Assembly: GCA_965369625.1 (NCBI GenBank)
Contig: CBDUQW010000006.1
Coordinates: 4,064-68,063 of the forward strand
Source: an uncultured Thermoplasmata archaeon
GTDB lineage: Archaea; Thermoplasmatota; DTKX01; GCA-020343715
Direction of reading: 5' to 3'
DNA: 64,000 nucleotides
The notes below the pieces were generated by a model that worked only from the letters and a program-made list of their open reading frames with translations, was not told the DNA's origin and did not search any database. A program made the position numbers and the translations under genes. Positions 32,231 through 57,654 of the stretch are shown here, in pieces (positions within the stretch are counted from its first letter, which is position 1; each line of letters opens with the position of its first letter).

Positions 32231-32268
32231 CCGCGATGGTTATCCACCCGTCGTTATAACCCCCGGAG

Positions 32269-35200: not shown

Positions 35201-35898
35201 CCCTGGCCGGCGAGGCGGTCCCCGACCAGGTGGGCCTGGTGCTGCGGTTCTCGGCGAACCTGGCCTCCCTCGCCGCACTGGCCGGCAGGGGTGTCGGTCT
35301 GTGGGAGGCCTCCGCGGAGGTGCTGCTGAGGGGCCTGCCTGGTGTCGTGCTGGCCGTTGTGCCCGGCATGGGGGAGCCCCATTGGAGGTGGGTGGAGGTG
35401 ACCCTGTTGCGGGTGAGGTTGCGGGAGACGGCGTCGCCCATGGTGCTGCTGTCCCAGGTGCTGTACGATGCCCGGGGGAAGGACGCGGACCTGGAGTTCG
35501 TGGAGCTGGTCAACCGGGGCGACCGGGTGCTGGACCTGGAGGGATGGTGCATCGAGGACGATGGCGGGCGGCTCGTGGTCAAGGGCCACCACCCGCTGCT
35601 GCCGGGGGACCACCTGCTGGTGGCCCGCAACGGGTCGGCCGTTCGGGAGACGTGGGGCCAGCGGGCCGACGTGGACCGCATGCGGCTCCGCCTGTCCAAC
35701 GAGGGCGACCACGTCAGGCTGCTGGGGCCGGACGGTTCCCTGCTCGACATGGTGGCGTGGGAGGGACACGTGCCGGGCTGGGAGGGGCTGGATGCCGGGG
35801 AGGGGTTCGCCCTCATACGGGCCGAGGGCTCGCTGGAGCGGTGTGAGCCCTCAGCGTGGACGGTGGGTGTGCCGGCACCACGGGGTTCGGTGTGGTGA
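32269..35898 (+). CDS. Large Ala/Leu/Gly-rich membrane-anchored protein with a C-terminal lamin-tail-domain (LTD)-like module
   Basis: N-terminal hydrophobic anchor (AAVLLLVLFTYSMALTG). The C-terminus LLSQVLYDARGKDADLEFVELVNRGDRVLDLEGWCIEDDGG...HLLVARN matches the LTD pattern (EFVEL-N-G...L-GW). The body is low-complexity and Ala-rich. Confidence 0.6.
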   Translation: MVEGREGPLGTFRDGDARLRTPYSASYRWRRDRAGRVSFSSAAVLLLVLFTYSMALTGPNGPWAGDGADDLSLADLEAMLRDGIQQALDAALERAVHAAALADGIDLASALDAAFSSCLPRYLPEEARGWKVDLERARAGLRCSPVPPPGPGLHLAATGPVALVEVSLTAPYFDTARPLRLALVVSGPLSSPNALVARTSSTMAALSDDGGPLAYALRNILWETVQSEVLKGQRGASGSIGPEAVETVFKRVIGDVARGGPPAAPGVPSIDLEALVRQAVEGMLQRNLGWLDEYILGGEVMEWLEELGGLGGLGGLGELGSIRRDLRTLAARRVAEVTIAVLEDAGLGVWAPDREDDLTGTVEAGVDALRGLSDRLQEASAFEGAAARAGREFAQEALTALLGAIPGSLEDGMVEALEGRAAWAFSQVALVVARLGLDCARDALLAIGTCGREVDAGEVGRVDASSSGPRVELGPLNVSTSWSGVVACEPGNLIGPAVRALWEGDGLPEVPMGSMPYRATCLVAVEGTARLVARLGPSAHGDGGGEVVWHVPVDLSVEVPLVSGWPLEGVEYVPSATLAGDLTTVVEAAYGSVGSSFGWLVQRFSDADEWVRTQLLDLAGDMRESLMTESAYTLSQALWSIGDDLVDRKVNDAINRSWDLLMDLFGDDLREALTWEFEVMGIDMRLSVDPAKQQLEVLARRGEVSLLLCVRRLCDPHPPFAARPISGYHWGVFGEARLDTEDGGAVLYLDPLTLEHPSVMTVEARWGDVTNGSGRLLRVEALEARKQRGTTGVSLSQLVGGSALLSMVGGLAVDAGVAVHGDLGEEGAMEEMLSRAVKDAWMATVRGWKVGDLLGGTGRGPDAGAFLETLLRELYFALVERGSGLVEEIEAFVEVDPPDPVWPAVRVSLVVLRPLEVLLPLVEWVRGALPGLVDGAWSGSGGGGSHGGGTGLAAWAAEHVVVRTELSWTVDVPERLRSLAGEAVPDQVGLVLRFSANLASLAALAGRGVGLWEASAEVLLRGLPGVVLAVVPGMGEPHWRWVEVTLLRVRLRETASPMVLLSQVLYDARGKDADLEFVELVNRGDRVLDLEGWCIEDDGGRLVVKGHHPLLPGDHLLVARNGSAVRETWGQRADVDRMRLRLSNEGDHVRLLGPDGSLLDMVAWEGHVPGWEGLDAGEGFALIRAEGSLERCEPSAWTVGVPAPRGSVW

Positions 35899-35924
35899 GG
35901 CTAGTTGGCCTGGGGGGTTCCCGG

Positions 35925-38900
35925 TCACTCGTCATCCCTGGGGGGCCTCGGGGCCGCCGCGGGGGTCTCGTCGTCCCTGGGGGGTCTCGGGGTCTGGTCG
36001 GGCGCCTGTGGCGGTTGTTGTTGGGCCATGACCTTGGCCTGGAGAGCAGAGGGCGGGGCCGGCTGGGCCGGCGGTGCCTGGGCCGGGCCAGTGGAGTAGC
36101 CCATCCTCTTGAGGCGCCTCTTGTACTCGGTGTTCATCAGCATCATGACCACGGGGATGGCGATGAGCACGGCGGCAACCACGAAGATGATGCCCCATAC
36201 GACATCGCTGTTGGCCTCGTAGAAGCCGGGCTCCTCGGGCTCCACCCGCTTCACGGTGAAGTTGACCGTGTAGGCGTTGCCCGCATAGTCCGTCGCGGTG
36301 ATGGTGACCCAGGTGGTCTTGTTCTTGCCGAGGATCACCGGGTGGGAGAACTCGCCCTTGGAGTCGACGTACACTATCTCCGTGGTCTTGTCGGACTCGG
36401 ACCCGTAGCCGATGACGACCGCCGCCGTGGTCTCGGTGTTGCCGATCACGGTGTAGAAGCTGTCCTCGGTCTTGACGATGCCGTTCAGCACATCGTCCAC
36501 GAAGACCTGGGGCTGCTGGGTGTCGAGGGTGACGATGGGGTTGACGGTCCGGGTGTTGCCCGCCTCGTCGCTGATGCGGATGGTGATGACGTTCTCGCCT
36601 TCCTCCATGTGGACCTTGGTGCTGAACCGACCGTCGCTGACCACGACGATCTTGTTCTCGATGTAGAGGGTCACTCCGTTCTCGGTCTGCCCCTCCACGG
36701 TGAGGACGCGGGTGTTGACGATGTCGCCGTCGGCTATCGAGAGGTTCGAGATCACGGGCGGGGTGAGGTCTATGACCAGGGGCACGGTGCGGCTGGCCTT
36801 GTTGCCGGCCCAGTCCGTGGCGTTGATCACCAGGTCGAAGGAGCCCTCCTCGACCACCGTCACGTTGGTCCTGAAGTAGCCCAGCTCGTCGACCTCTATG
36901 CGGATGTCGTTCACGGTGATCTGGTTGAACTCGATGTCCCGGTCGGTCCTGCCCCTCACCACGAAGATGGAGCTGTTGATGAGGCCGCCGTCGGCGGGCT
37001 CGTCGATGTCGATGACCGGCGGGTCGGGGTCGTAGTAGATCTCGTGGTTGACCACCCTGTGGTTCTTGGCAATGTCCACCGCGTCTATGACGAGGATGTT
37101 GTTGCCCTTCACCAGGGATATCCTGGAGGTCCAGACGCCGTTGGAGACCTCTATGGACCTCCCGTTGATGGTCATCGTCACGCCCTCCAGGTCCGTGTAG
37201 CCTCCCATGTCCACCGCGTCCTTGTTGGTGCGGAGGCCGTCCCTCGGCTGGTCCACAACGACGATTGGGGCGATGGAATCGAGGAGGATGTACCGGATGT
37301 CCTTGGCGATGTTGCCAGCGTAGTCGGTGGCGACGGTGACCAGGGTATTGTTGCCCTCGTACAGCGTGAGGGGTTTGTTGAAGGTCCCTCCGGAGAAGGG
37401 CAGGTACTCGCCGTTTATCGTGAGGGTGATCACGTCGGCATCGGTGGTGCCGAGGACGGTTATCTGGGAGCTGTTGGTGATGGTGTTAGGGCCCGGCTGG
37501 ATTATTACCAGCGACGGGGCTGTGGTGTCCACTGTCACGTTCATGATGGTGATGTTGGCGTAGATGCCGCCCGGGTAGTTGGCCCAGTCGAAGGCCCTCA
37601 CGTAGATGGTGTACACGCTGTCCAGGGCGGGGTCCAGGTAGAAGTCCCAGGCGGAGGTCCCGGAGGCGTTGAGCCACACCTTGTTCTTCCACAGCGGCTC
37701 GTCGTCGAAGCTGATCTGCACGACACGGGCGTGGGAGTGGGCGTCCAGGCACGTTCCCCTGATGGTGAGGTTGTCGTAGTTCTGCACGTGGTTGGAGCCG
37801 GGGGAGACCACAGTGAGGTCGGGGGCCTGGTTGTCGAAGAAGACCAGGTTCTCGTTGTAGTCCCTGTCGAAGTCTATCCCGGGGCCGGTCAAGCGCATCT
37901 GACCGCCCACCAGGTAGGCCGTGATGGACCGCCGGATCGTCGACCTGGTCTCGTGGACCATCCAGTCCCATTCCTCGTGACGGCCCAGCCATCCGTCGTA
38001 GTCGGATGTGTAGTAGAACAGCCGGTCCCCCGCGGGGTCCTCGAACTCCACGGTGTTGTGCCGGCAGGGCATGCCGTTCTGCCAGGTGGCGGTGAACTCC
38101 AGGGTGCGGAAGGAGGTGATGAGGTAGGAGCCACCCGAGACGCGGGCCATGGCCTTCCTGTGGGTGGTCCCGTAGATCTCCAGCACGGTGTTGACGGAGG
38201 TGTAGTCCGCCTGGGAGCCCTCGTTCACGTTGTACGAGTCCTCCAACGTCGCGCACAAGAAGTTGCGGAAGGCGAAGCCGCCGCCCTCGTTGTCCTCGAT
38301 GTACAGGTTGCTGAACACGGGGCGGAGCCAGTGGGTCTGGGTGAAGTCGATGACGATGCCCTGGCCACCGTTGCCGATGGAGGTGACGCCCGACACATAC
38401 TTCATGTGATGGATGGAGCAGCCTACGACCAGGTGGACGCCGTCCCCGGTGTTGTTCTTGGCCCACACGTCGTCGACCCGGACCTCCACCACGCGCACCG
38501 TCAGGGAGGCGTAGAGGCCGTGACCCCCGTTCTTATAGACCTCGTTGTCCTTGAGGAAGAACCGGCCCTTGTCGGTGGTGGTGGTCACCCGTATGCCGTC
38601 CTGGAGCGAGCCCGAGGCGTTGTTGCCGTGGCAGATCACCTTGACCTCGGTGTTGTCCATGTCGGGCAGGTTGATGAGGATGCCGTACCCGGAGGCGTTG
38701 GTGACGTTGTTGTGGCTGATGTCCATTCCGCCCTGGTAGGTGCCGGTGGGCTGGACGTTGATCCCCGTGCCACCGGCACGGTGGATGGTGCAGTTCTTCA
38801 CCTGGGTGCTCCACGAGTTGATGAGGATGCCGTCGGTGTGGGTCATGTCGCACTCGTTGATGGCGGTGCGGCCCTCCGACTCCATCTTCCAGTTGCTGCC

Positions 38901-39191
38901 CGAGGAGGTGATGGTCCCGCCCTGTATGGTCAAGCGGGCGTTGGTGGTGGTGGTTATCTTGTGGTCGACGATACCGGTGAACCTGAGGTTCACGTTGCTC
39001 AGGGACAGGTGCCCGTTGCCGATGACCCTCACGCTGCCGGTGATGGTGACCTGCCGGTTGGAGATCGAGGTCGAGTCCGAGATGACCCAATCACCCGAGG
39101 CGGGCGGGTTGGTCTGGGCGGAGGCCGAGAGGGCCACCGCGACGATGGCCAGCAGTGCCACGAGTGCGATCAGTATCAGTGCGCGCTTCAT
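35925..39191 (-). CDS. Giant surface protein A: signal peptide, right-handed parallel beta-helix (pectate-lyase/NosD-like), multiple Ig-like domains, C-terminal transmembrane helix and Pro-rich tail
   Basis: 1088 aa. Signal peptide is followed by AQTNPPASGDW. Beta-helix repeats are present (NCTIHRAGGTGINV, ISHNNVTNASGYGILIN). Ig-like repeats begin with TTAPSLVIIQP, SIAPIVVVDQP, PDPPVIDIDEP, LTPPVISNLS. The transmembrane segment is VVWGIIFVVAAVLIAIPVVMML. Confidence 0.75.
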   Translation of the reverse strand: MKRALILIALVALLAIVAVALSASAQTNPPASGDWVISDSTSISNRQVTITGSVRVIGNGHLSLSNVNLRFTGIVDHKITTTTNARLTIQGGTITSSGSNWKMESEGRTAINECDMTHTDGILINSWSTQVKNCTIHRAGGTGINVQPTGTYQGGMDISHNNVTNASGYGILINLPDMDNTEVKVICHGNNASGSLQDGIRVTTTTDKGRFFLKDNEVYKNGGHGLYASLTVRVVEVRVDDVWAKNNTGDGVHLVVGCSIHHMKYVSGVTSIGNGGQGIVIDFTQTHWLRPVFSNLYIEDNEGGGFAFRNFLCATLEDSYNVNEGSQADYTSVNTVLEIYGTTHRKAMARVSGGSYLITSFRTLEFTATWQNGMPCRHNTVEFEDPAGDRLFYYTSDYDGWLGRHEEWDWMVHETRSTIRRSITAYLVGGQMRLTGPGIDFDRDYNENLVFFDNQAPDLTVVSPGSNHVQNYDNLTIRGTCLDAHSHARVVQISFDDEPLWKNKVWLNASGTSAWDFYLDPALDSVYTIYVRAFDWANYPGGIYANITIMNVTVDTTAPSLVIIQPGPNTITNSSQITVLGTTDADVITLTINGEYLPFSGGTFNKPLTLYEGNNTLVTVATDYAGNIAKDIRYILLDSIAPIVVVDQPRDGLRTNKDAVDMGGYTDLEGVTMTINGRSIEVSNGVWTSRISLVKGNNILVIDAVDIAKNHRVVNHEIYYDPDPPVIDIDEPADGGLINSSIFVVRGRTDRDIEFNQITVNDIRIEVDELGYFRTNVTVVEEGSFDLVINATDWAGNKASRTVPLVIDLTPPVISNLSIADGDIVNTRVLTVEGQTENGVTLYIENKIVVVSDGRFSTKVHMEEGENVITIRISDEAGNTRTVNPIVTLDTQQPQVFVDDVLNGIVKTEDSFYTVIGNTETTAAVVIGYGSESDKTTEIVYVDSKGEFSHPVILGKNKTTWVTITATDYAGNAYTVNFTVKRVEPEEPGFYEANSDVVWGIIFVVAAVLIAIPVVMMLMNTEYKRRLKRMGYSTGPAQAPPAQPAPPSALQAKVMAQQQPPQAPDQTPRPPRDDETPAAAPRPPRDDE

Positions 39192-42100
39192 CAGTATCCA
39201 CCTCCCTCGCGGTACTGTTCATCATCGTAATGGGCCTGGTCGTAGTCGTAAAGACCCTCCCGGTCCGCCTTGCTGTCGTAGTCCTCCAGCTCGGGGTGCT
39301 CCTGGAGGAACTTGCCCCTCTGCCAGATCACGGTCAACGGGATGACGATGGCGATCGCGATGATTATCCCGAAGACCCACCAGAAGCCCTTGAGCTGCTG
39401 GCCGAGGGTCTCATCTTCGTCCGCCTCGGTGGCGTAGGTGATGTGGAGCAGGTCGGTGGCGGTGTTGCCCGCGCGGTCGGTGACGACGACCTCGATGTTG
39501 TTGAGGCCCGGTACCAGGGGAACGTTGGTCTGGTAGGTCCCCGTCTCGGGGGTCACCAGGACCTGCCTGCTGTTGATCGTCAGGGTGACGATGCCCAGGT
39601 CCTCGACCTTGCCGGAGATGGTAACGGTGTCCTCGTACACCGTGACCTCCATCGCGTTGTTCATCTTGGGGTTGAAGTACTTCATCTCGGGGGACCGGGG
39701 GTCCACGTCCAGGATGTATATGACCCGCATCTTGTTGCCCGCGATGTCGGTGGCGTAGAAGCTGATGGTGTTCTCGCCCTCGTCCAGGTTGAAGTCCCTG
39801 AAGAAATCGGTCTTCGAGCCCTCCTCCATGATGGCCGACCTGTTGTCGGACCCCACCTGGATCCACATCTCCCGCATGTCCTCCCGGGCGAGGCGGCCAC
39901 GGAAGGTCACGGAGCGCTCGTTGATGACCAGGTCGTCCGTCATCTCCCATACCCTGCCGCCGATCTTCGTCGAGCTGACCGTCAGGTCCACCAGCATGGG
40001 CGGGGTGACGTCCACGTGGATGTTGCGGGTGGTCATGTTGTAGTTGCCGGCGGGGTCCTCCACCTCGATGGTCAGGACCTGGTCGCCCTCCAGCATGTTG
40101 ACCTCCACGGCGAAGGTACCCTTCTCCACGTCGAAGATGAAGCCGTTGATCTTGACCTTGGTCACCTCGGTGTCGGTCCGTCCGGCCACGTAGACCCTCT
40201 GGTCGTTGGTGGGCTTGGGGTCGAAGGGTGGCACGATGTCCTCCAGCACCGGCGGGGTGATGTCGAACTTGACGTGCCGCTGCTGCTCGTTGACGTTGCC
40301 GGCCTCGTCCTCGGCGATGATGGTGATGGTGTGGACGCCCTCGTCCTTGATGTGCTGCACGAAGTAGAACCGTGTGCCTCCACGGTCCTCCACCTTCGTG
40401 GGCTGCCCGTCGTCCAGCTTGACGAACACCTTGGCCGTCTGCTCCGTGTCCCCGGAGACCTCGAAGTCGTTCTCCCTGGAGCTGAAACCCGTTCGAGGTG
40501 TCGAGATTATCAGGGTGGGCTCCTGGGTGTCCAGCACGATCTGCCGGGTCACCACTGCGATGTTGCCCGCGGTGTCCTCGGCTATGATCAGGAAGGTGTT
40601 GGTCCCCTCGATTAGGGTGGCGTTGAACGTGAAGGTGTTACCGATTATCTGCAGGGGGATGTCGTTGATGGTCAGCTTGCGGATGTTGCTGGACCGCTCG
40701 GTGTGGCCGATGATGTCGTACAGCCTCTTGTTCGTCACCGAGAAGGGGTCCTCGGGGTCGAGGACCTGCAGGTAGGGGGGCTCGGTGTCGATCTTGACGT
40801 TCTTGATGGTGACCAGCGCGAAGCTCAGGTTCTCTATCGGATACCTGGCCACGTCCCACCCACGGATGGAGATGGTGTACACGCCGTCGGTCAGGTCGTC
40901 GATCTCCACCTGGAAGCCGGACCTGGACTGCCCCCTCTTGGGGGGCACCTGCACCGCCTGGTACCAGACCACGTTGTCCAGGGTGACCTCCACGGCGCGC
41001 ACGCCGCTGTGCACGTCCCGGATCTCGCCCTGTATGATCAGGGAGCCCGATTTCTGCACCGTGTCGTCTCCGGGGGTGTTGATCACCAGGGTTGGCACGT
41101 CGGGGTCCTCGATGCCGACCTTCGACACGTTGAAGTCGAACCACAGGCTGTTGAGGGTCTCGCCACGGACGGTGAGGAAGGCCTGCAGCTCGTCGTTGCG
41201 CAGGGGGTTGTTGTTCTCGTCCTTCTCCCAGAAGGGCACCATCGCGTGGGTCAGGTTCCCGTACGCATCCGTCCTGCCGGTGAAGACCTCCACCTGGGGC
41301 GCCCGGTAGCGCTTGATGAGGACGGTCTGGTTGGCGATGGGCTCCAGGTTCTGCCAGGCCACCAGGCTGATGTTCAGCCACTGGTAGTAGAAGACGCCGA
41401 TCTTTATGCCGCTGCCCATGGTCTGGGCGGAGAGGTCTGGGAGGGTGCAGTACCTTAGGTGGATGTTGCTGTCCCGGGCCACCACGCTCGGGCCGACACC
41501 GGTCAGGTTGCAGTACCTTGCATCGACCTCGCAGTACTGGGCATCGAGGGAGGTGCCGGGCTCCGTGATGTAGGAGTTGCGCAGGTTCAGTTCCCACCGC
41601 TTGTTCTCGTCCACGCCCTGCAGGACAAGGCCGGTGGCGCCGGCCGCGCTGCCGCCGGTGTACTCGACGCGCACGCGGTTCAGGGTCGCCTTCGGGTTGA
41701 AGCTGGCGGCGGCCAGCCGGATGGTGATCGCCACGTCGTTGGGCGAGTTGTCGATGGCGGTGAGGCCGTCGAGCTTGAAGTTGATGTTCCCCAGCTGGGA
41801 GTTCGAGTGGATGTACACGCCGCCATCGTCGTTCTCGTTCGCCTGGACGTTCTTGATGTCGTACACCGACCTCTGGGCGTTGGCACCGTAGTCGTCCATG
41901 ATGAAGACGCCGTACTCGGTGTTCACGTTGAAGTTGCAGTTGTGGAGGGAGTACCTGGTGTCGGTGGCGGTGTTCACGGCCAGGGTCCCGCCCATGTCGA
42001 TGCCCAGGCCGTTGCCCATGTTGTTGGTGACGATGGTGTCCGCCACCTTGACGTCGAGGGTCCCGGTGAGGCCGCTGCCGGTGAGGGAGATGGCACCCTC

Positions 42101-43528
42101 GTCGTTCCATACATCGGGTCGGTTGCGGGTGAGGGTCGAGTTCTCCACCAGGAGGGTCACGTCGCCGCCGATGGACACGGCGTTGACCATCAGGCCGGCT
42201 CCCCGGTTGTTCGTGAAGGTGTTGGACCTGGTGGCCAGCACCTCGAGGTCGCCGGTGCGGCTCTGGGCGTCTATGTACACGCCCCTGGCGTGGTTGCGCA
42301 GGAAGTTGTTCTGCTGCAGTATGACGGTGAGGTCGCCGGACCCGGATGGGGCAAATATGGCGAGGCCGCAGTCCTCGAGGCCAGTGGTGGTCATCTCGCC
42401 GTTGTCGTTGAAGTCGTTCTCGGACACGTTGATGTCGCAGTCGCGGGAGACGGCGTTCAGCACGAACATCGCGCCGCCCTTGGCGTTGCTGGACATGTTG
42501 TTGTCGATGATGACGTCGAAGGTCATCTTGCCCCCGGTGGTGGAGGTGCTGACGATCATGTACAGGCCGTAGTTGGAGGTGAAGACGTCGTTGAGCTTGA
42601 TGTTGGCACCGAAGGACTGGTAGCCGTAGATGCCAGCCACGCTGTACCTGTAGAACCTCTGGTTGACGGTGTTGCACCCGTCCATGAAGGTGTCGGAGGG
42701 CACGTCGAGCACACCGGTGTCGGTCACGGTGCTGCTCTCCACGTCCAGCCGGGTCGAGCGGGCGGCCACGGCGTGGGCTATGACCTGGTAATCGTTGGCG
42801 TTGGTGGAGGCGCCCCCGTAGTACACCGAGGTCATGGTGTCGAACTCGCCGATGTTCGTGAAGTCGTTGTACTCCAGCCTCGCCGGGGCGTTGTCAAGCA
42901 GGACGCCGAAGGCAACGGCGGACCACTTGGTGGTCGAGGGGTCCGAGGTGACCTGCGAGTAGGCCCTGACGTCGTAGATCACGTCGGAGATGGTGTTACC
43001 GTAGAGGAAGGGGCTGCAACCGCTGATGTAGACCATGGTCAGCAGGCCCTTGCTCAGGGTGCAGTTGCCGATATACACGTTGTTGGAGTAGATCTGGATG
43101 CCGCCCACCATGTTGGTAAGGTCCGGCGACCGTCCCGTGGAGGCGTCGAAGGCCTGTCCCTGGCCCCAGGTGTCGGTCACGGTGACGCCTTCCAAGACCG
43201 CGGCCCCGCTCAGGATGACCTTGTACCTGTACATCGATTGGCCAGCGGTGATGGAACCGCCGTCCATGGTGAGCTTGCCGCCGGTGTTCACGCGGATGGT
43301 GTACTGTCCGTCCACGGTGCAATTCATCACGAGGTCGATGTCGGTCAGTTCGAGCCAACCTCCTGATAGGACCGTGATGTTGCCATTCACGTTCGTGTCC
43401 GTGGACCAGGTGGTGTGACCGCCAACGTCCAAGTCACCAGGGATGTCTAGGGCGGACACGGTGCCGGCCAGGGCGCACACCGCGAACGCCAGTGCGATAA
43501 TAAGATAGGGCCAGTGGGGAAACCTCAT
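39191..43528 (-). CDS. Giant surface protein B: beta-helix/Ig-like paralogue
   Basis: Start at MRFPHWPYLIIALAFAVCALAGTVSA (internal Met of the listed ORF). Pectin-lyase-like beta-helix repeats are followed by Ig-like modules (TEPPYLQVLDP, TQEPTLIISTP, ITPPVLEDIVP, VTPPMLVDLTV). C-terminal transmembrane helix plus an acidic/Tyr-rich tail. Its stop abuts or overlaps the gene A start. Confidence 0.7.
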   Translation of the reverse strand: MRFPHWPYLIIALAFAVCALAGTVSALDIPGDLDVGGHTTWSTDTNVNGNITVLSGGWLELTDIDLVMNCTVDGQYTIRVNTGGKLTMDGGSITAGQSMYRYKVILSGAAVLEGVTVTDTWGQGQAFDASTGRSPDLTNMVGGIQIYSNNVYIGNCTLSKGLLTMVYISGCSPFLYGNTISDVIYDVRAYSQVTSDPSTTKWSAVAFGVLLDNAPARLEYNDFTNIGEFDTMTSVYYGGASTNANDYQVIAHAVAARSTRLDVESSTVTDTGVLDVPSDTFMDGCNTVNQRFYRYSVAGIYGYQSFGANIKLNDVFTSNYGLYMIVSTSTTGGKMTFDVIIDNNMSSNAKGGAMFVLNAVSRDCDINVSENDFNDNGEMTTTGLEDCGLAIFAPSGSGDLTVILQQNNFLRNHARGVYIDAQSRTGDLEVLATRSNTFTNNRGAGLMVNAVSIGGDVTLLVENSTLTRNRPDVWNDEGAISLTGSGLTGTLDVKVADTIVTNNMGNGLGIDMGGTLAVNTATDTRYSLHNCNFNVNTEYGVFIMDDYGANAQRSVYDIKNVQANENDDGGVYIHSNSQLGNINFKLDGLTAIDNSPNDVAITIRLAAASFNPKATLNRVRVEYTGGSAAGATGLVLQGVDENKRWELNLRNSYITEPGTSLDAQYCEVDARYCNLTGVGPSVVARDSNIHLRYCTLPDLSAQTMGSGIKIGVFYYQWLNISLVAWQNLEPIANQTVLIKRYRAPQVEVFTGRTDAYGNLTHAMVPFWEKDENNNPLRNDELQAFLTVRGETLNSLWFDFNVSKVGIEDPDVPTLVINTPGDDTVQKSGSLIIQGEIRDVHSGVRAVEVTLDNVVWYQAVQVPPKRGQSRSGFQVEIDDLTDGVYTISIRGWDVARYPIENLSFALVTIKNVKIDTEPPYLQVLDPEDPFSVTNKRLYDIIGHTERSSNIRKLTINDIPLQIIGNTFTFNATLIEGTNTFLIIAEDTAGNIAVVTRQIVLDTQEPTLIISTPRTGFSSRENDFEVSGDTEQTAKVFVKLDDGQPTKVEDRGGTRFYFVQHIKDEGVHTITIIAEDEAGNVNEQQRHVKFDITPPVLEDIVPPFDPKPTNDQRVYVAGRTDTEVTKVKINGFIFDVEKGTFAVEVNMLEGDQVLTIEVEDPAGNYNMTTRNIHVDVTPPMLVDLTVSSTKIGGRVWEMTDDLVINERSVTFRGRLAREDMREMWIQVGSDNRSAIMEEGSKTDFFRDFNLDEGENTISFYATDIAGNKMRVIYILDVDPRSPEMKYFNPKMNNAMEVTVYEDTVTISGKVEDLGIVTLTINSRQVLVTPETGTYQTNVPLVPGLNNIEVVVTDRAGNTATDLLHITYATEADEDETLGQQLKGFWWVFGIIIAIAIVIPLTVIWQRGKFLQEHPELEDYDSKADREGLYDYDQAHYDDEQYREGGGY

Positions 43529-43703
43529 AGTGACCACTGGTCCGCAAACCGGTGGGTTTGTATAAATACTTTCGCTTGACGTTGACGCGGGGGCAGAGGT
43601 ACTGGCACCCCGTTCACCGGGGTCCTCCGGGGCCACGTTGGAGCAGTCTTCGACATGTACGCCGTCGGCCACCTCTCGTGGTGCTGCCGAGCCCGCCGCC
43701 CCT

Positions 43704-46700
43704 CTATCTCCACGGGGGCTTGGGAGGCACGCTGGGCCCCTCCTGATGGTCCGGCGGGGGCGGAGGGAGGGGGCGGGCCGGCTGGGGCTGGGGCTGGGGC
43801 TCCTCGACGGGTGCGGGTTCCTCCTCGGTCACTGGTGCGGGTTCCTCCTCGGTCACTGGCGCGGGTTCGGGTGGGATCTCGGGGAAGCCGTGTCCCTTGG
43901 CCCACGGGGGGGTCTCGTGGAGGAATCCATCCTCCTCGATGACCTCCTCCTCGTGGGACCTGTCCCGACGGGACCGGACACCGGGGTAGATGATGGCCAT
44001 CCCGATGATCAGCACCACGAGGATGAGGGCGATGGACACTCCCCATCCCGCTCCCATGATGCCCGTGGGGGGTGGCTCATCGGAGTACCTGGTGACGTTG
44101 ACCACGGTGGTCGCGCTGTTGCCAGCGGCGTCGTAGGCCACCACCCTGAGGGCGTTCTTGCCCTTCTGGAGGTGGATCGCCTCGGTGAACTCGCCGTTGG
44201 GTCCGAGGACCACGGGAACGTTGTTGATCCTGACCTCGTCCCCCTCCTCGAGGATGCCGCTGACCTCCACTATCTCGTTGGGAGTGCGCTCCACCATCGC
44301 CGACAGGTAGAGGACGGGAGCCACCAGGTCGTGGTCGATCTCCAGGACCAGGTGGGCCTTGTTGCCAACATCGTCCTCGGCCATGATATGGATGGTGTTG
44401 AGACCCCGCACCAGGGGGTAGGCGTCGTACCTGAACGTGTTCTCCAGGCGCACCAGGTATATCAGGTCGAAGTCGTCGTGCTGGGGCTCTCCCCAGATAG
44501 TCAGGTCCACGTCGGTGTCCACGCGGCCATATATACGGACCGAGGACTCGCGGGTCTCGAGGTACAGCTCCGGCTCCTCCAGCTCCAGGTCGGGCGGGGT
44601 GGTGTCCAGGAGGATGGTGTATCTGCGGGAGTTGTAGTTGCGGGCGTTGTCCCAGGCCTCGATGGTGATGTGGTTGACGCCCTCGTCGAGGCGGAAGTCC
44701 TTGGAGAAGGCCTGGTCCACCACCTCCACCAGCAGCCCGTTGATGATCACCATGCCCACCGTGGGGTCGTCGATGGTGCCTCGGATGTCGAGGTACCGCT
44801 GGTTGGTCAAGATGTCGCCCTGGGGGCTCTCGACCCGCAGCAGGGGCGGGATGCTGTCCAGGTGCACGTCCCTGACAACCCTCAGGATGTTGTTCGCCCG
44901 GTCCACGGCCTCGACGATGATGCTGTTGAGGCCCTCGGACAGGTAGATGGTCTCGGCGAAGCGGCCGCCGTAGGTGTCTATCGGCTTGCCGTTCACCCGG
45001 ATGGTGGCCCCCAGCTCGGTGATGCCCTTGACCTCCAGCTGGGAGACGTTGGTCCAGGTGTCCTGCTCGGGGCTGGTCAGGATGAGCTTGGGGATGGTGG
45101 AATCCCGGACGATGGCCTTGTGCACCTCGGCGGTGTTGCCCACGTGGTCGGTGGCGGTGATGCGGAACTCGTTGGAGCCGCTGTGTATCTCCTGGGTCGA
45201 CGACCAAGTGCCGTCGGGCAGTACCTCCACCTCCTGCCGGTTGATGATGAGGCTCACCTGACCGTGGACCTTGCCGCGCAACGTGTAGTTCACCGAGGAT
45301 GTGTACCATGTGTCCTTGACGGGGTCCAGCACCTCTATGGTGGGAGGTGTCAGGTCGATCTGGATATTCTCCACCGTCATCAACACGTCGTTGCCCGCGT
45401 TGTCCTCGGCCTGGATGTAGATCGTGTGGGTACCCTCCTCCAGCTCGAGGACGACGAGCCAGGTCTGCTCCTCGCGGCCGGCGATGATCCAGTTCTCGCC
45501 GTCGGTCGAGACCTTGGTGGTGTTCATGCCCGCACCCACATCGGTGCACATGCCCCTGACCTCCAGGAGCACGTCGTTCTGGGCATGGCCCTCGCCGGGG
45601 CTGAAGACGTAGATGACCGGGTCCACGTCGTCGTCGATGAGTATGCGGGCGTCCAGGTTGGAGATGAACACGAACTCCTTGCCCGTCGTGGAGGATTCGA
45701 GCCCGGCGCTGTAGGCCTTGATGTACAGCGGGGAGTTCGACACCTCCGTCTGGGAGCTGGATACGACGTAGATGGTCTTGGACGTCACGATCAGGGGACC
45801 GATGGTGCCGTTCTCGTCGGCGATGCCGCCGTAGACGAAGGCCTCGGATTTGTTGAAGACCTGGACGAAGGCGCCCGGGATGGGCATGAGGTTCTGCCAG
45901 GTCACCTCGATGTCCAGGTAGTACATGATGCGCACCGTGGAGCCAGCATAGGAGTAGCTCTCGACGCGGAGGGGGCTGAAGGTGCAGTTGACGGCGTCCA
46001 CCTTCGTCGACTGGAGCATGAAGGTGGCCTGGTCGGTGGACCTGATGCTTGAGTTGGCCATGAAGATGTAGGCGCCGTTCCAGCTGGTGGTGTAGATACC
46101 GTAGTCGCCGCCTATCAGCTCGCTCCCCAGTATCCTGACCTTGGGCGCAGGGTTCCCGTAGGAGACGTAGAGGTTCGTCGCCAGGCCAGGTCGTGCGTCC
46201 AGGTAGCAGTCCTGGATCCTGTGGTTGCCCTGACCCACGTAGATGTTGTAGGCATTGCTCACTACGTTGTTGTCGTTGGAGAAGTTGATCAGGTGGAGGG
46301 TGGTCCCGTAGACCCAGATGTTGGCGATCACGAGGTTGCCGCCGGCAGAGGAGTTGGCCACGGTCATGGTCCCGCCCCCCTCCGCGATGTAGATGCCTCC
46401 CGAGGGGCTGTACACGGTGGTGCCCCGGAGGTAGCGGTTGCCGTTCACGGTGCATCCGTCCACGAGCGAGGGATAGCCGCCGTCCATCCCGTAGATGCCG
46501 AAGACGTCGTTGTTCTGGAAGGACGAGTCGTGGACCGTGGGATGGGCGCTGGTGCCGACGCACACCAGCCCTCCCTCGGGGATATCGTCCCAGAAGAACT
46601 GCTCGAAGAATATCTGCCGCACCCCGTCGACGGTGCGATCGGGGGGCTGGTCGCCGTTGTTCCTGAAGGTGCAACCGGTGATGTTGGGAGCGGAGTTGTA

Positions 46701-47462
46701 GTCCAGCAGGCCGCGGCCGAAGGTCATCACGCCGTTGTAGTAGTAGGAGGTGGAGTAGAACTGGTTGGCGGTGTTGCGCAGGCCGTTGTTGCGGAAGACG
46801 CAGTCGGTGATGTTGGAATCCGAGTCCTCGAGGTAGAGGCCCGTGGCGTCCACGTACCAGCCATAGATGGTGGCGCCCCACTGGTAGCTGTAGCCGTTGT
46901 AGTTGTACGTGCTCACGTACTCGGCGTTGTAGAACTCGCAGTCGGTGATCTCGATGGCGACGCCGCTGACGAACACGTTGATGCGCTGGCTGTCGTGGAA
47001 CTTCGACCTGACCAGCCGGGAGTTGTCGTCGTATATCTGGACGCCTCCCGCGATGTCATCCCAGAGGTTCCACCTGAGGGAGTTCGCCGCCAGGTCCCGG
47101 ACGTCGGAGTCCACTATCACCAGCTGGCCCTGGGCCTCGAACCAGATGTGGAGGCCAGGATCGGAGGACTTGAGGGTCACGTTGGCCAGCTCCAGGGTCG
47201 AGCCCGCCTCGACGTAGATCAGGAGGCCACCGTCGACCGAGGGGTCCATGGTGAGGGTCATCTCGTCCAGCTTGAGCGAGCCGCTGCTGTTCACGGTGAG
47301 GTTGCCGGCCAGGACCAGGTCCTCGTCCCAGTACGTCACGTCCTCGACCACCCAGTCGTCCCCCGCCGTCGACGGCGGGTCGGTCTGGGCCGTGGCGAGG
47401 GCGGCGACGGCAACAAGGACCAGGAGGGCGGCCATAGGCAGGATGCTGGCAAGGCGCCTCAT
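43704..47462 (-). CDS. Giant surface protein C: beta-helix/Ig-like paralogue
   Basis: 1252 aa. Signal peptide followed by AQTDPPSTAGDDW. Beta-helix region is followed by Ig-like modules (LTPPTIEVLDP, STIPKLILTSP, SIPPLLRVESP, TTPPDLELEEP). Transmembrane helix plus a tail with the duplicated motif APVTEEEPAPVTEEEPAPVEE. Confidence 0.75.
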   Translation of the reverse strand: MRRLASILPMAALLVLVAVAALATAQTDPPSTAGDDWVVEDVTYWDEDLVLAGNLTVNSSGSLKLDEMTLTMDPSVDGGLLIYVEAGSTLELANVTLKSSDPGLHIWFEAQGQLVIVDSDVRDLAANSLRWNLWDDIAGGVQIYDDNSRLVRSKFHDSQRINVFVSGVAIEITDCEFYNAEYVSTYNYNGYSYQWGATIYGWYVDATGLYLEDSDSNITDCVFRNNGLRNTANQFYSTSYYYNGVMTFGRGLLDYNSAPNITGCTFRNNGDQPPDRTVDGVRQIFFEQFFWDDIPEGGLVCVGTSAHPTVHDSSFQNNDVFGIYGMDGGYPSLVDGCTVNGNRYLRGTTVYSPSGGIYIAEGGGTMTVANSSAGGNLVIANIWVYGTTLHLINFSNDNNVVSNAYNIYVGQGNHRIQDCYLDARPGLATNLYVSYGNPAPKVRILGSELIGGDYGIYTTSWNGAYIFMANSSIRSTDQATFMLQSTKVDAVNCTFSPLRVESYSYAGSTVRIMYYLDIEVTWQNLMPIPGAFVQVFNKSEAFVYGGIADENGTIGPLIVTSKTIYVVSSSQTEVSNSPLYIKAYSAGLESSTTGKEFVFISNLDARILIDDDVDPVIYVFSPGEGHAQNDVLLEVRGMCTDVGAGMNTTKVSTDGENWIIAGREEQTWLVVLELEEGTHTIYIQAEDNAGNDVLMTVENIQIDLTPPTIEVLDPVKDTWYTSSVNYTLRGKVHGQVSLIINRQEVEVLPDGTWSSTQEIHSGSNEFRITATDHVGNTAEVHKAIVRDSTIPKLILTSPEQDTWTNVSQLEVKGITELGATIRVNGKPIDTYGGRFAETIYLSEGLNSIIVEAVDRANNILRVVRDVHLDSIPPLLRVESPQGDILTNQRYLDIRGTIDDPTVGMVIINGLLVEVVDQAFSKDFRLDEGVNHITIEAWDNARNYNSRRYTILLDTTPPDLELEEPELYLETRESSVRIYGRVDTDVDLTIWGEPQHDDFDLIYLVRLENTFRYDAYPLVRGLNTIHIMAEDDVGNKAHLVLEIDHDLVAPVLYLSAMVERTPNEIVEVSGILEEGDEVRINNVPVVLGPNGEFTEAIHLQKGKNALRVVAYDAAGNSATTVVNVTRYSDEPPPTGIMGAGWGVSIALILVVLIIGMAIIYPGVRSRRDRSHEEEVIEEDGFLHETPPWAKGHGFPEIPPEPAPVTEEEPAPVTEEEPAPVEEPQPQPQPARPLPPPPPDHQEGPSVPPKPPWR

Positions 47463-50400
47463 TCGGATGGCACCCCCTTGCGCCTCTCGAGGATGTAGAG
47501 CACGATCATGCCGATGGCGAGGCCGACGAACAGGAAGAGCACGAGCACGAGCCAGCTGGCGTCGCCCAGGCCCATGATCCCGGTGTCGTCCACCTGGAGG
47601 GCCGCCCTCTCGATGGCGACCTCCTCGGTGTGGGTGTTGCCCGCGGCGTCGACGGCCTTCACGACGAACACGTTGTCGCCCATCTGGAGGGGCACGTAGG
47701 CCGCGAAGTAGCCCCGATTGTTGGGCTGGATGGGGACGTCGTTGATGGTCATGAGGACCACGTCCTCCACGTCGACCACCATCCCGGTGATGTTGGTGAA
47801 GTCGGAGGTTCTCGTGGGGGAGGTCTCGTACACCGTGAAGGAGGGGGCCTTGGTGTCACGGTACACCCTCAGCTCCTTGGTGACGGTGTTGCCCACCTCG
47901 TCCATGGCCACTATGGTCAGGACGTTGGGCTCGCCTCCGGGAGGTGTCTCCGTGAGGGTCGCCTCGTGGGCGAAGAACCCGCCGGTGACCGGGACCTCCT
48001 CGTCGTCGATGGTGAGCATGGAGCCCACATCGACGCGGCCGTGGACCAGCACCGTCTCCTCGGTAGAGTAGGCACCGTCCTCGGGGCCGTCGATGACCAG
48101 GTCGGGCGCCGAGATGTCCAGTAGCAGGGTGTAGGTGCGGGAGATGGAGTTGCCCGCCATGTCCGTGACCTCCACCAGGATGACGTTCTCGCCCTCGCTC
48201 AGCTTGAAGCTCTTGCTGAAGGAGTTCTTGCGGATGGGCAGGGGCACCTGGTTGACCCTGACCTCCTTGACGTCGGGCCCCACGGTGCCGGACACCGTGA
48301 TGGTGGAGTGGCTGACGGCCTCGTCGCGGACGGGGTAGGTCATCTGGACGTCGGGCGGGGTAACGTCGTAGATGACGTCCCGCCTGACCACCTTGTAGTT
48401 CCTGGCCAGGTCGACGGCCACGATGAGGATGATGTTGGTCCCCTCCTGGAGGGTCATCGGCATCGTGAACAGGCCGTTCTCGACCTGGATGGGCAGGTCG
48501 TTGATGGTCACGACCACGTCGATCTCCGTCAGGCCGGAGATCTCCAGGACCCTTCTGTTGGTCACCAGGTCCTCAGTGGGGCTCTCCACCAGCAGGATGG
48601 GTGCGCTGATGTCCTGGTAGATCCGGATGAGGGAGATGTTCTTGTTACCAACGAGGTCGACGGCCATGACCTCGTAGGTGTTGAGGCCCTCCTGCTGATC
48701 GGACAGCTGGGTGGAGAAGGAGCCGCCATGGGTGGTCAGCTCGACGCCGTTGAGGAAGACCTTCGCACCTATCTCCGCCTGCCCGTTGATCAGCACTGTG
48801 CTCTGGTTGGTGTAGATGAAGTCGCTCTTGGGCGAGGTGATCCTCAACCAAGGCTCGCTGAGGTCGACGGTGACGTTCCTGATGATGTAGAGCTGGCTGG
48901 CGCCAGCGATGTCCACGCCGCGGACCTGCATGTCGTACACGCCCTCGGGCAGGTCCAGGGAGAGGTTCCACCTCAGGTTCCCGTCGGCGCGGTGCCATGT
49001 CTCGCCCTCGTCGGCCGAGACCTCGACCCGTTCCAGGCCGGACCCCACATCGACGGCGATCCCGAGAAGGCGCATCGTCGTTATGTTCTGGGCGTGGTCC
49101 TTTTTCGGTGCGTAGATCTCGACGTTGGGGGGAAGGTTATCGACCACGATGCACTGGAAGAAGGTGTTCTTGTCGAAGGTGACGGTGTACATCTCGGACT
49201 CGATGGCGTTGGCGTAGGCCGATATCTTGAGGGGGCTGTTGACCACCGAGACCTTGTTGTTGGAGGTGCCGGACAGCCTGGTCTGGAGGAGCGTCCTGGT
49301 GGGCATCTTGCCCTGGTCGTCCGCCTTGTTGGCCTGGAGCAGGCCATTGGACTCGTTGAAGATCTGGACGATGGCGGAGGGCACGGGAACGCCGTTCTGC
49401 CACGTCACCTGCACGTTCAACCTCCAGTAGATGTTCACCTCGGCGGAATAGTACCCCAGCTCGATGTCGCTGCGCTGGATGGTCACGTTGTAGAAGTCCA
49501 CCCGGCCGTTGTTCGCGTACACCTTCTTCGAGCAGTTGTTTATCCACGTGTCGTGGATCTCGACCAGGCCGGTGTCGGTGATGTAGATGGCCCGCTGGCA
49601 GAAGGTGATGTTGAGCTCGCGGATGTCGATGTTCCCGCTCCCCTGCTGGATGTAGATGGCCGACTCGTAGCGAACGTTCCTGGCCTCGGCCGTGCCGTTG
49701 AAGGTGTTGTTGAAGGCGGTGATGGTCCCCCGGCCGTTGATGTAGAGGCCATAGTAGAAGAAATCGTACATCTTGTTGTTCTTCATGATGGTGTCGCCCG
49801 AGAAGATGCCAACACAGCTGCCGCCGTTGGTCCAGAACTCGTTGTTCTTGATGGCGGACTTGCCACCGGTCTGGTATATCCCGTGGGCCTGCCTGGTATA
49901 GGAGTAGTAACCCTGGTAGTTCTCGGTGAAGTTGCACCCCGTGACCTCGAGGATGAGGGGGTCCTGGGCGCGCACGGCGCCCCGGTACTCCTGGCTATAG
50001 AAGTAGAAGTAGATGTACCGGTTCTCGGAGGGGATGTACATCCTGTAGGACGAGGAGGTGTGCATCCTGCCTATGTCGGTGAAGATACAGTCGATGATCT
50101 TGGGCGAGCCCCTGAGGGTGTAGACGGCCATGCCGTTCAGCCGGAGGTATGTGGTCGAGTAGCTCCCCCAGTCGGTGTAAGCGGTGGAGTAGTCGCCCAG
50201 CTCGGTGAAGGTGCAACCCTCGATCCTGGGGGCGCCGTCGATGACCACGATCCCGAAGGCCTCCCTGTACACGTAGTTGGAGCTCTTGTAGTAGGTGTAG
50301 TACGCCGACCGCTGGAAGGTGGTGTTGATGATGGTGGGGTTGGCGTTGGTGATGACCATGGCCACCCGCGGGTTGTCGGTGAAGGTGCACTCGGTGATGG

Positions 50401-50869
50401 TCACCGAGTGGGACTTGACCTGCATGCCGCCCTGGAGGGCGCTGGAGGTGGAGGACGTGTCGTGCCACAGGCCCGACACCGTCACCCCGTCCATGTCGAC
50501 GGTGGCCCCGTCGTCGATGATGAACCTGTAGGTGTAGGACTTGCTGCTGTGGGTGATGGAGCCTCCGTCGAAGGTGAGCTCTGCGTTGTTCCTTATCCTG
50601 ATGCTGGTGCCTCCGACGCTGGCATGGGACATGACCAGGTCCACATCGTTCAGCGTGAGCGTGCCACCGCTGTAGACGTAGAGGTTGCCGCGGAGGGTCA
50701 CCCTCTGGTTCGAGATCGTGGTGGAATCGTAGATGTTCCAGTCACCGGAGCTGGGAGGGTTCGTCTGGGCCTCGGCATCCTCGGGGGCGATGACGAGGGC
50801 GAGCACTACAACGAACAACAGTCCCAGGGCGATGGAAAGCCCTATCCTGCTTGACATCTGGCCAGTCAT
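47459..50869 (-). CDS. Giant surface protein D: beta-helix/Ig-like paralogue
   Basis: 1136 aa. Signal peptide followed by AQTNPPSSGDW. Beta-helix region is followed by Ig-like modules (LSEPWLRITSP, ISAPILLVESP, VTPPDVQMTYP, ISAPDLVIDGP). C-terminal transmembrane helix. Its stop overlaps the gene C start (ATGA). Confidence 0.75.
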   Translation of the reverse strand: MTGQMSSRIGLSIALGLLFVVVLALVIAPEDAEAQTNPPSSGDWNIYDSTTISNQRVTLRGNLYVYSGGTLTLNDVDLVMSHASVGGTSIRIRNNAELTFDGGSITHSSKSYTYRFIIDDGATVDMDGVTVSGLWHDTSSTSSALQGGMQVKSHSVTITECTFTDNPRVAMVITNANPTIINTTFQRSAYYTYYKSSNYVYREAFGIVVIDGAPRIEGCTFTELGDYSTAYTDWGSYSTTYLRLNGMAVYTLRGSPKIIDCIFTDIGRMHTSSSYRMYIPSENRYIYFYFYSQEYRGAVRAQDPLILEVTGCNFTENYQGYYSYTRQAHGIYQTGGKSAIKNNEFWTNGGSCVGIFSGDTIMKNNKMYDFFYYGLYINGRGTITAFNNTFNGTAEARNVRYESAIYIQQGSGNIDIRELNITFCQRAIYITDTGLVEIHDTWINNCSKKVYANNGRVDFYNVTIQRSDIELGYYSAEVNIYWRLNVQVTWQNGVPVPSAIVQIFNESNGLLQANKADDQGKMPTRTLLQTRLSGTSNNKVSVVNSPLKISAYANAIESEMYTVTFDKNTFFQCIVVDNLPPNVEIYAPKKDHAQNITTMRLLGIAVDVGSGLERVEVSADEGETWHRADGNLRWNLSLDLPEGVYDMQVRGVDIAGASQLYIIRNVTVDLSEPWLRITSPKSDFIYTNQSTVLINGQAEIGAKVFLNGVELTTHGGSFSTQLSDQQEGLNTYEVMAVDLVGNKNISLIRIYQDISAPILLVESPTEDLVTNRRVLEISGLTEIDVVVTINDLPIQVENGLFTMPMTLQEGTNIILIVAVDLARNYKVVRRDVIYDVTPPDVQMTYPVRDEAVSHSTITVSGTVGPDVKEVRVNQVPLPIRKNSFSKSFKLSEGENVILVEVTDMAGNSISRTYTLLLDISAPDLVIDGPEDGAYSTEETVLVHGRVDVGSMLTIDDEEVPVTGGFFAHEATLTETPPGGEPNVLTIVAMDEVGNTVTKELRVYRDTKAPSFTVYETSPTRTSDFTNITGMVVDVEDVVLMTINDVPIQPNNRGYFAAYVPLQMGDNVFVVKAVDAAGNTHTEEVAIERAALQVDDTGIMGLGDASWLVLVLFLFVGLAIGMIVLYILERRKGVPSE

Positions 50870-50949
50870 ATGACTACCCTTAGTTAGGAAGCGGCTGGCC
50901 GTATAAACAATTTATGGTTTGGGGTTGTACCTCACCAACAGTGAGCCAG

Positions 50950-57618: not shown

Positions 57619-57654
57619 GCCGGTCCTCCGTGCGAGCGAGGGCCGCCGCGACCC

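Follow-up and report, generated by a model that had tools for sequence, protein, structure and literature searches.

Paralogous genes for probable membrane-anchored beta-helix surface proteins: two likely coupled pairs in an uncultured Thermoplasmata archaeon

The cell surface of the uncultured Thermoplasmata clade considered here is essentially undescribed so far. We analysed a 64,000-nucleotide (nt) stretch of one contig from such an archaeon (CBDUQW010000006.1; hereafter the window), in which four consecutive genes on the minus strand, called A to D, encode giant proteins with a beta-helix head, an immunoglobulin (Ig)-like stalk and a membrane anchor. Their coordinates and their lengths in amino acids (aa) match the list of open reading frames (ORFs), as a preliminary description of the locus had stated; the basis of each assignment is given in brackets.

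35925..39191, minus strand: gene A, 1088 aa; shortest head (~430 aa); 69-aa Pro-rich tail (ORF list, Pfam, alignment)
39191..43528, minus strand: gene B, 1445 aa from the ATG; longest head (~800 aa); 44-aa Tyr/acidic tail (ORF list, Pfam, alignment)
43704..47462, minus strand: gene C, 1252 aa; architecture as in D; 94-aa Pro-rich cytoplasmic tail (ORF list, Pfam, alignment)
47459..50869, minus strand: gene D, 1136 aa; 10-aa basic tail (ORF list, Pfam, AlphaFold, and orthologues P0001, P0003, P0002 and that of locus L088)

The codon composition of all four is that of real genes (GC3 0.92–0.93 and GC2 0.40–0.42, in a sequence of 63% GC). The ORF of gene B is open as far as 43672, but the gene is counted from the ATG whose end lies at 43528, because orthologues use the same start: MRFPHW is common to the orthologue of locus L082 and to P0016, and B of L088 has MRYPYW at the equivalent position. 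Over their full length A–D are 25–28% identical to one another. The single paralogous family of surface proteins proposed earlier is borne out by the alignment and by the shared architecture, and we consider it probable, for the explanation developed below as a whole, that A–D are paralogues of ancient divergence within one family of cell-surface proteins with a type-I membrane anchor.

Each protein consists of an N-terminal signal peptide, a right-handed beta-helix head, a beta-sandwich, six Ig-like modules, a C-terminal transmembrane segment and a tail; besides the N-terminal hydrophobic signal segment there is exactly one transmembrane segment per protein. In Pfam searches, Beta_helix (PF13229) scored above the gathering threshold of 25.9 bits in C (52.4 bits) and D (54.3 bits) and was not reported for A or B at E < 0.01. 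A and B are, however, homologous (cross-type BLAST scores of 57–132 bits) and fit the shared profile. Four to five Glucodextran_B stretches, together with Big_13, were found in each of A–D, and the stalk aligns without large gaps through all four paralogues. Its junctions have the form D-x-x-P-P ... D-x-A-G-N and, by analogy, may be stabilised by Ca2+. NCBIfam gave only sub-threshold or stalk-repeat matches on the stalk (Ca_tandemer, OmpL47 barrel), and no model matching the head and no sorting signal. Neither Pfam nor NCBIfam holds a curated model for the head subfamily, its cap or the beta-sandwich that follows, and a sequence search of the PDB returned 0 matches.

An AlphaFold2 model of full-length D, built from a 30-sequence alignment, reached a mean predicted local distance difference test (pLDDT) score of 84.7. 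It comprises a signal helix (residues 13–24), a disordered stretch (24–34), a beta-solenoid from W44 to ~475, a beta-sandwich (~476–575) that carries a conserved VTWQNG, six Ig-like modules (577–1088) and a transmembrane helix (1104–1127). Pfam, the transmembrane scan and this model agree with the order of parts described earlier (signal peptide, beta-helix, Ig modules, transmembrane helix, tail), except that six Ig-like modules replace the four or five first counted and that the beta-sandwich had been overlooked. Confidence was below 50 for residues 24–34 and reached 91 for the block 41–50. When the head of D was modelled alone (aa 35–580, 48-sequence alignment), pLDDT rose to 95.8, with a predicted template-modelling score of 0.92, and the model is all-beta with short regular strands. 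Its first ten residues, QTNPPSSGDW, average a pLDDT of 85, and the first strand is W44-N-I. Foldseek searches with full-length D returned only Ig-chain proteins (for example alpha-2-macroglobulins, DSCAM and GhpA) and nothing on the head, whereas all significant matches of the head model were right-handed beta-helix proteins.

The cytoplasmic tails (35925–36131, 39194–39325, 43707–43988 and 47462–47491) are paralogue-specific, and they are kept in the distant locus L088. That of D is short and basic, that of C long and Pro-rich (EEPAPVTEEEPAPV...PPPPPD), that of B Tyr-rich and acidic (YDYDQAHYDDEQY), and that of A Pro-rich with a repeated PRPPRDDE; this specificity hints at distinct intracellular partners. 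Directly before the transmembrane helix, C (~43990–44015) and D (~47560–47590), and not A or B, carry TGI[ML]G[LA]G, which reads SGILGLG in D of L088 and matches no known C-terminal sorting signal. An anchor of the PGF-CTERM/archaeosortase type was rejected, as no NCBIfam model matched and A, B and C have tails of 44–94 aa.

The array is conserved in related loci. In three ENA contigs of a related organism (L082–L084) the gene order is CARDB protein, PdxS, FG-GAP/fn3 protein, asparaginase, D, C, B, A, with identities to the window of 90% for PdxS, 85% for asparaginase, 72% for D and 69% for each of C, B and A. A more distant JGI contig (L088), whose HMG-CoA reductase is 83% identical, has the same order, including an LTD gene convergent with A. 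In these related Thermoplasmata metagenome contigs the array kept 1:1 comprises PdxS, the FG-GAP protein, asparaginase, D-C, B-A and the LTD protein. BLAST typing of representative sequences gave a separate orthologue group for each paralogue, among them C-type (P0004, P0005 and P0010–P0019), B-type (P0016, P0018 and P0030) and A-type (P0020, P0031 and P0048) sequences. Since each has its own group, we conclude that A–D are old paralogues retained 1:1.

Further relatives occur in other arrangements. In the more distant metagenome-assembled genome GCA_975959785.1 (L085, 3119–10160), a C-like gene (P0010, 1189 aa) precedes a D-like gene (P0008, 1156 aa) at a distance of 1 nt; as this order is opposite to that in the window, the adjacency of C and D is older than the gene order. 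Two JGI contigs (3300033154 and 3300033155; L086/L087, 10001–13177) carry a D-type head, 36% identical, on a PKD stalk instead of a Glucodextran_B stalk, in a solitary gene beside a TBP gene, which indicates shuffling of head and stalk domains within the family. The D orthologue P0002 (GCA_975959645.1; L001, 4133–6589) becomes low-complexity Ser/Thr/Arg sequence past ~aa 740, probably through a frameshift or an assembly error and not by real truncation. A search of the genome collection by way of the neighbouring asparaginase gave matches of at most 56% identity (Methanomassiliicoccales, Thermoplasmata and bacteria), none of them with the family nearby.

The junctions between the genes, and the sequences ahead of D and B, are as follows (SD, Shine-Dalgarno).

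50902..50917, minus strand: promoter-like block before D, CCATAAATTGTTTATA; TATA-like element ~33–40 nt ahead of the D ATG
47459..47477, minus strand: D/C junction; SD-like GGGGGTG (47471–47477), then ATGA at 47459–47462, the C start over the D stop
43544..43586, minus strand: promoter-like block before B, GTCAACGTCAAGCGAAAGTATTTATACAAACCCACCGGTTTGC; TATA-like TTTATA at 43561–43566, 33 nt ahead of the B ATG
39189..39206, minus strand: B/A junction; SD-like GGGAGGTGGA (39197–39206), then TGATG with a 1-nt overlap at base 39191

The overlaps from D to C and from B to A, noticed before, were read directly as ATGA and TGATG and are kept in orthologous loci. At D/C, L082 has GGGGGTGCCCCAATGA and L088 has GGAGGTGGTAGGTTGA, arranged as in the window, and the overlap is 4 nt in L082–L084 and in L088 alike. 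At B/A the corresponding sequences are GGGAGGTGATTACTGATG and GGAGGTGATCTCCGATGA; the overlap is 1 nt in L082–L084, and in L088 there is an 8-nt gap as the genes are called, which becomes a −4 overlap (ATGA) only if A starts at an upstream ATG (MRRRM). Between C and B lie 175 nt in the window, as read from the sequence, 155 nt in L082–L084 and 122 nt in L088. Experiments in Haloferax and E. coli have shown that overlaps of −4 and −1 nt cause tight termination-reinitiation coupling, which is essentially lost by a gap of ~20 nt; such overlaps are also enriched among subunits of heteromeric complexes (PMC10666635). D/C and B/A, on the same strand, have exactly these overlaps, a 4-nt ATGA and a 1-nt TGATG, whereas the gap of 175 nt between C and B exceeds the coupling limit.

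The spacer between C and B is itself informative. Its last ~45–85 nt are nearly unchanged in the window, L082 and L088 (GTCAACnTCAAgCaAA..TATTTATA..ACC..CGGTTTGC), while the remaining, first part has diverged with insertions and deletions. Because only the B-proximal block is conserved, we propose that B-A has an archaeal promoter of its own. Ahead of D, CCATAAATT..[TA][TA]ATA is kept in four loci (the window, L082, L001 and L088). The genes are therefore best read as D-C and B-A, two bicistronic units that are each coupled in translation and served by a promoter of their own, and not as the single translationally coupled four-gene operon suggested at first, with which the 175-nt spacer and its conserved promoter-like block do not agree. 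Each unit would be driven by its own conserved B recognition element (BRE)/TATA-like promoter, and its second gene would be translated by termination-reinitiation at ATGA or TGATG, helped by the SD-like sequence. The conserved coupling suggests that D pairs with C and B with A; if the coupled pairs are truly heteromers, they would be a tractable case of paralogues that assemble in pairs on the surface of an archaeon. The element GTCAACnTCAAgC (43571–43586, minus strand), which lies upstream of the TATA-like box of B, is kept in three lineages, and it could be a regulator-binding site instead of part of the BRE.

Near the N-terminus of the four proteins lies a motif that the preliminary description had placed directly after the signal peptide in three of the four. 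This holds for A, C and D, B having a degenerate form.

50738..50770, minus strand: AQTNPPSSGDW of D, aa 34–44; predicted signal-peptidase site, Pro-rich lead and first beta-helix strand
47352..47390, minus strand: AQTDPPSTAGDDW of C, aa 25–37; counterpart of the D motif
43424..43453, minus strand: ALDIPGDLDV of B, aa 26–35; degenerate motif, core P-G-D-[LWY]-x-[VI] retained in the alignment
39087..39119, minus strand: AQTNPPASGDW of A, aa 25–35; counterpart of the D motif

In the real coding frames of the window, Q[TS]xPP occurs in the A, C and D motifs only. B-type orthologues begin with ALDVPGDLDI, AIEVPGDLVV, AVDITSDWDV or ATDIPGDYII. Seven D-type orthologues, down to 30% identity, have A34, Q35, T36, P38, P39, G42, D43, W44, D48 and T50 invariant, and 11 C-type sequences have A25, P29, P30 and W37 invariant. 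Given an overall identity of only 25–28%, the near-identity of this 11–13-residue motif is not due to chance, as was argued from the start; its conservation throughout the family confirms this. The motif also lies at a fixed distance from the signal peptide. The other secreted proteins of the window have signal peptides that end in A-x-A followed by acidic residues, and since they lack the motif, it is not an organism-wide export signal; a general secretion tag is ruled out on the same ground.

The extent of the family was determined with an exhaustive HMMER search of the head profile against 1.84 billion representative sequences (clusters at 50% identity), which gave 2187 relatives at E ≤ 1e-3, of which 84 at E ≤ 1e-30. 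This search with a hidden Markov model (HMM), a check proposed in the preliminary description, also showed that the motif is family-wide. Word-indexed homologue searches returned 2 matches with the D head and 1 with a 36-sequence N-terminal profile and are uninformative on family size; D-type patterns found no relative among the GTDB species representatives, and looking up the exact D sequence in the assembly index yielded no record. The motif was counted in the best 151 of the 2187 relatives as PP-x(1-9)-[GAS][DENTHP]-W-x-[IVL] inside the first 90 residues. It was present in 106 of these 151, and in 97 of the 106 it lies 7–15 residues (median 10) past a hydrophobic segment. The consensus is A-Q-T-P-P-P-A-S-G-D-W-[TVI]-[VI]-x-D-x-T, although large subfamilies have A-T-N-D-P-P-x-G-G-G-T-V-x-G-D-W, Y-P-A-P-x-N-G-D-W or ADPP instead. 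In alignments of 30 and 36 sequences made independently of the pattern, P38, P39, G42 and W44 are among the very few (nearly) invariant columns.

The same start is also found inside proteins. An HMM of the first ~215 residues detected 25 internal module copies with the GDW columns in 19 proteins, several of which keep the PP lead, and in the 2722-aa protein P0038 (JGI) each of three beta-helix modules opens with HGSGPDYPPPxxGDWVIDS after an Ig-like domain. Some relatives have several heads, two or three beta-helix modules with Ig-like domains between them. The PF13229 model starts at aa 48 of D, which leaves the motif just outside curated models; 29 of the 36 family N-termini match PF13229, and one relative bears the NCBI name 'right-handed parallel beta-helix repeat-containing protein'.

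We interpret the motif as a signal-peptidase site joined to the N-terminal beginning of the beta-helix module, a non-helical cap that is common to the whole family. Within it, A-x-A|Q would be an ordinary signal-peptidase context, with cleavage and possibly pyroglutamate formation; T-x-P-P-x-x appears to be a proline-rich lead, which also serves as a linker ahead of internal modules; and G-D-W-x-[IV] forms the first solenoid strand in the model. The fixed distance to the signal peptide follows from the N-terminal position of the module in most family members. That beta-helices carry capping motifs is established (Bryan et al. 2011, as cited in PMC11532034). Known helices usually have other caps, such as the alpha-helical N-cap cited in the same work, whereas no N-terminal helix was assigned by DSSP in the D head.

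A Sec-type signal peptide would then export each protein, and Gln would become its first residue after cleavage at A-x-A. A short Pro-rich lead, T-[ND]-P-P-x-x, would pass into G-D-W-x-[IV] as the first strand of the beta-helix, and the head would be followed by the ~100-aa beta-sandwich, the six-Ig stalk, the single transmembrane helix and the paralogue-specific cytoplasmic tail. The stalk would keep the head tens of nanometres above the membrane.

The preliminary description had taken the motif for a processing or sorting tag. In its more specific form this would make AQT[ND]PP a dedicated N-terminal tag, for pyroglutamate formation, Thr O-glycosylation or proteolytic maturation, to be read apart from the fold. 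The residues before PP do show some preference (A in 46, Q in 43 and T in 52 of the 106 sequences), D-type orthologues as distant as 30% identity keep A34, Q35 and T36 without exception, and AQT[ND]PP is modelled with lower confidence than GDW onwards. The strictly conserved residues, however, are P, P, G, D and W rather than A, Q and T, the prefixes vary in the large subfamilies listed above, and internal copies that have no signal peptide retain PP..GDW. Paralogue B and its orthologues are conserved without QTxPP, the organism's other secreted proteins lack the motif, and no candidate processing gene is conserved beside the array. We regard such a tag as very doubtful, the motif being a beta-helix start in more than 2000 representative proteins. 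It had been foreseen that the motif might be simply part of a widely distributed beta-helix cap with no fixed position relative to the signal peptide; it does mark a widely distributed beta-helix start, but its position relative to the signal peptide is conserved. The practical value of the start lies mainly in annotation: at least 2187 clusters (50% identity) have a recognisable [A|Q-T]-x-P-P-x-x-G-D-W-x-[IV]-x-D-x-T, which is uncaptured by Pfam and NCBIfam and appears to mark where the domain really begins and, for most members, where the mature protein starts.

Archaeal adhesin-like proteins (ALPs) commonly have an N-terminal right-handed beta-helix followed by Ig-like repeats and a transmembrane anchor (PMC11532034). 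By Pfam and AlphaFold, A–D have an N-terminal beta-helix followed by Ig-like repeats, the latter with weak matches to adhesin repeats stabilised by Ca2+, and nothing in them contradicts the expectation for such proteins. By analogy, they most likely serve in the cell coat as adhesin-like components that bind glycans or surfaces. They share with the ALPs of Methanobrevibacter and Methanosphaera a large size, a beta-helix on the N-terminal side, Ig-like repeats, a single transmembrane anchor and many paralogues per genome (PMC11532034). Most ALPs differ in having an N-terminal transmembrane anchor and a pseudomurein wall, whereas A–D have a cleavable-looking signal peptide, a C-terminal transmembrane helix and a tail. 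Glucodextran_B/Big_13 Ig modules, the PPxxGDW helix start and the conserved 2 x 2 coupled array also set A–D apart from them. The term ALP describes a category and does not denote a family of homologues. A–D are a new, uncurated member group within a known kind of archaeal surface protein, and the finding is real but fairly ordinary. A 2025 ISME J paper on the surfaces of Thermoplasmatales contains nothing on such proteins.

Some observations tell against the explanation given so far. AlphaFold confidence for Q35–S40 is only moderate, so that the packing of the invariant PP (P38, P39) is only loosely predicted. The Foldseek matches of the D head in the PDB are generic right-handed beta-helices, with template-modelling (TM) scores of 0.17–0.37 and identities of 8–14%. 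C-type heads contain an invariant polar cluster (H156, D157, Q159, R160, E181 and D205) that could be a catalytic and not a binding site. Finally, an oligo-T terminator tract was not found in the C-B spacer, so that read-through into a four-gene transcript is possible.

The polar cluster bears on whether the heads are instead surface-displayed polysaccharide-degrading enzymes, pectate-lyase-like lyases or glycosidases, with complementary activities encoded by the two operons. This is a typical fold for proteins that act on glycans (cited within PMC11532034); endoglycosidase tailspikes, GH110, GH87, GH28 and a K1 capsule lyase are among the best Foldseek matches; and in C-type heads, His, Asp, Gln, Arg and Glu residues on consecutive rungs are invariant. 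These matches are, however, generic, and the pure adhesins PfbA, pertactin and Ag43 are among them along with the HK620 and P22 tailspikes. No CAZy-type Pfam or NCBIfam match was found. P38, G42, L71 and G148 are the columns invariant in all four types of paralogue; since no charged helix residue is invariant, one shared catalytic site is disfavoured. We consider the enzymatic alternative quite unlikely, though each paralogue type keeps its own polar patch, which makes glycan binding or a type-specific enzymatic activity possible. The bacterial beta-helix adhesins and phage tailspikes named here are the best structural matches of the head, but they differ in their anchoring and secretion systems as well as in the low TM scores.

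Another alternative is that A–D are subunits of one ordered S-layer-like or canopy lattice of wall-less Thermoplasmata, with D-C and B-A as obligate 1:1 heterodimers formed through coupling. The four genes are kept 1:1 in synteny, with coupling-type overlaps, across lineages whose HMG-CoA reductases are 83–92% identical, even the more distant L085 genome retains a C-like/D-like pair 1 nt apart, and heteromeric complexes are over-represented among overlapping gene pairs (PMC10666635). The order in L085 is C-like then D-like, however, and more distant D-type homologues are solitary, with PKD stalks; the at least eight other giant, mostly C-terminally anchored surface proteins of the window also fit a varied adhesin repertoire better.

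Archaeal S-layer systems with membrane-anchored stalk proteins include the Sulfolobales SlaA/SlaB operon and the haloarchaeal S-layer glycoprotein, the latter built of Ig-like domains. A–D resemble these systems in their beta-rich anchored ectodomains, in their probable co-transcription as envelope genes and perhaps in N-glycosylation, and the membrane anchor, the six-module Ig stalk and the 14–17 N-x-S/T sequons per protein recall archaeal S-layer glycoproteins. The sequons amount to 1.0–1.6 per 100 aa, against 0–0.6 in the cytoplasmic proteins of the window, but with z = −0.1 to 2.0 relative to composition-matched shuffles they are barely beyond what composition predicts. No S-layer family (SlaA/SlaB, haloarchaeal csg, DUF1608 and others) gave a Pfam, NCBIfam or PDB sequence match, and the sole resemblance is a weak local Foldseek match of 111 columns to SlaB (8qox_B; E = 2.8e-3). 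Without sequence or global fold homology to these systems, A–D also differ from them in that all four are anchored and of one architecture and lack both a coiled coil and a PGF-CTERM or archaeosortase signal. A multi-component surface structure, as first suggested, may exist; an S-layer-like assembly of A–D is a minority possibility, and we judge the lattice with obligate heterodimers unlikely. Its most elaborate form, in which two obligate heterodimers (D-C and B-A) join through their heads into a multi-component canopy that replaces an S-layer, with Q-T-x-P-P-x-x-G-D-W as the head-to-head or maturation interface and the tails linked to intracellular partners, is very unlikely.

Tandem paralogous surface genes commonly serve as a substrate for antigenic variation, and the preliminary description had accordingly considered a variation cassette, in which surface antigens would be exchanged or switched by recombination. 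The paralogues are only 25–28% identical, DNA repeats are limited to short stretches that match at 60–80% and fall on the codons for AGN in the Ig modules, and there is no recombinase, invertible element or meaningful inverted repeat. Each paralogue has strict 1:1 orthologues in a fixed order in three lineages. In the absence of long DNA repeats and with orthologues this stable, we rejected the cassette as extremely improbable; adhesin-like components of the cell coat remain the preferred reading.

The conserved D-C/B-A array, which lies within a 40-kb island of anchored giant proteins, is a good candidate for major envelope components of the clade. The island (window 11584–35898 and 51979–62502) includes at least eight large proteins besides A–D.

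11584–15402, plus strand: Big_5/PKD protein with signal peptide, C-terminal transmembrane helix and tail
15509–16408, plus strand: PKD protein with signal peptide, C-terminal transmembrane helix and tail
19103–22072, minus strand: PKD/CARDB protein with signal peptide, C-terminal transmembrane helix and tail
22364–25165, minus strand: PKD/CARDB protein with signal peptide, C-terminal transmembrane helix and tail
30446–32230, plus strand: 5xPKD protein with signal peptide, C-terminal transmembrane helix and tail
32269–35898, plus strand: LTD protein with an N-terminal hydrophobic segment and without a C-terminal transmembrane helix
51979–56553, minus strand: FG-GAP/fn3 protein with signal peptide, C-terminal transmembrane helix and tail
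57655–62502, minus strand: FG-GAP/CARDB protein with signal peptide, C-terminal transmembrane helix and tail

In most of the seven with a transmembrane anchor the tail is acidic. An archaeal origin of the window fits its HMG-CoA reductase, which is 100% identical to one database entry and 92% identical to another named [Thermoplasmata archaeon], and a Taw2/Trm5 gene together with the TATA-type promoter elements; Rfam and tRNA scans of the window found only a tRNA-Ile at 26294–26371. The two PKD/CARDB proteins are adjacent paralogues of 989 and 933 aa. In both, a CxxC (FTGADCPPCRNAD, MTGAWCGPCVNAN) closely follows the signal peptide, suggesting an extracellular domain of the thioredoxin-like kind. 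GC content reaches 0.70–0.72 across the LTD gene (window 32001–36000), compared with ~0.63 in the flanking surface genes; despite this high GC, the LTD gene is the conserved convergent neighbour of gene A in L088.

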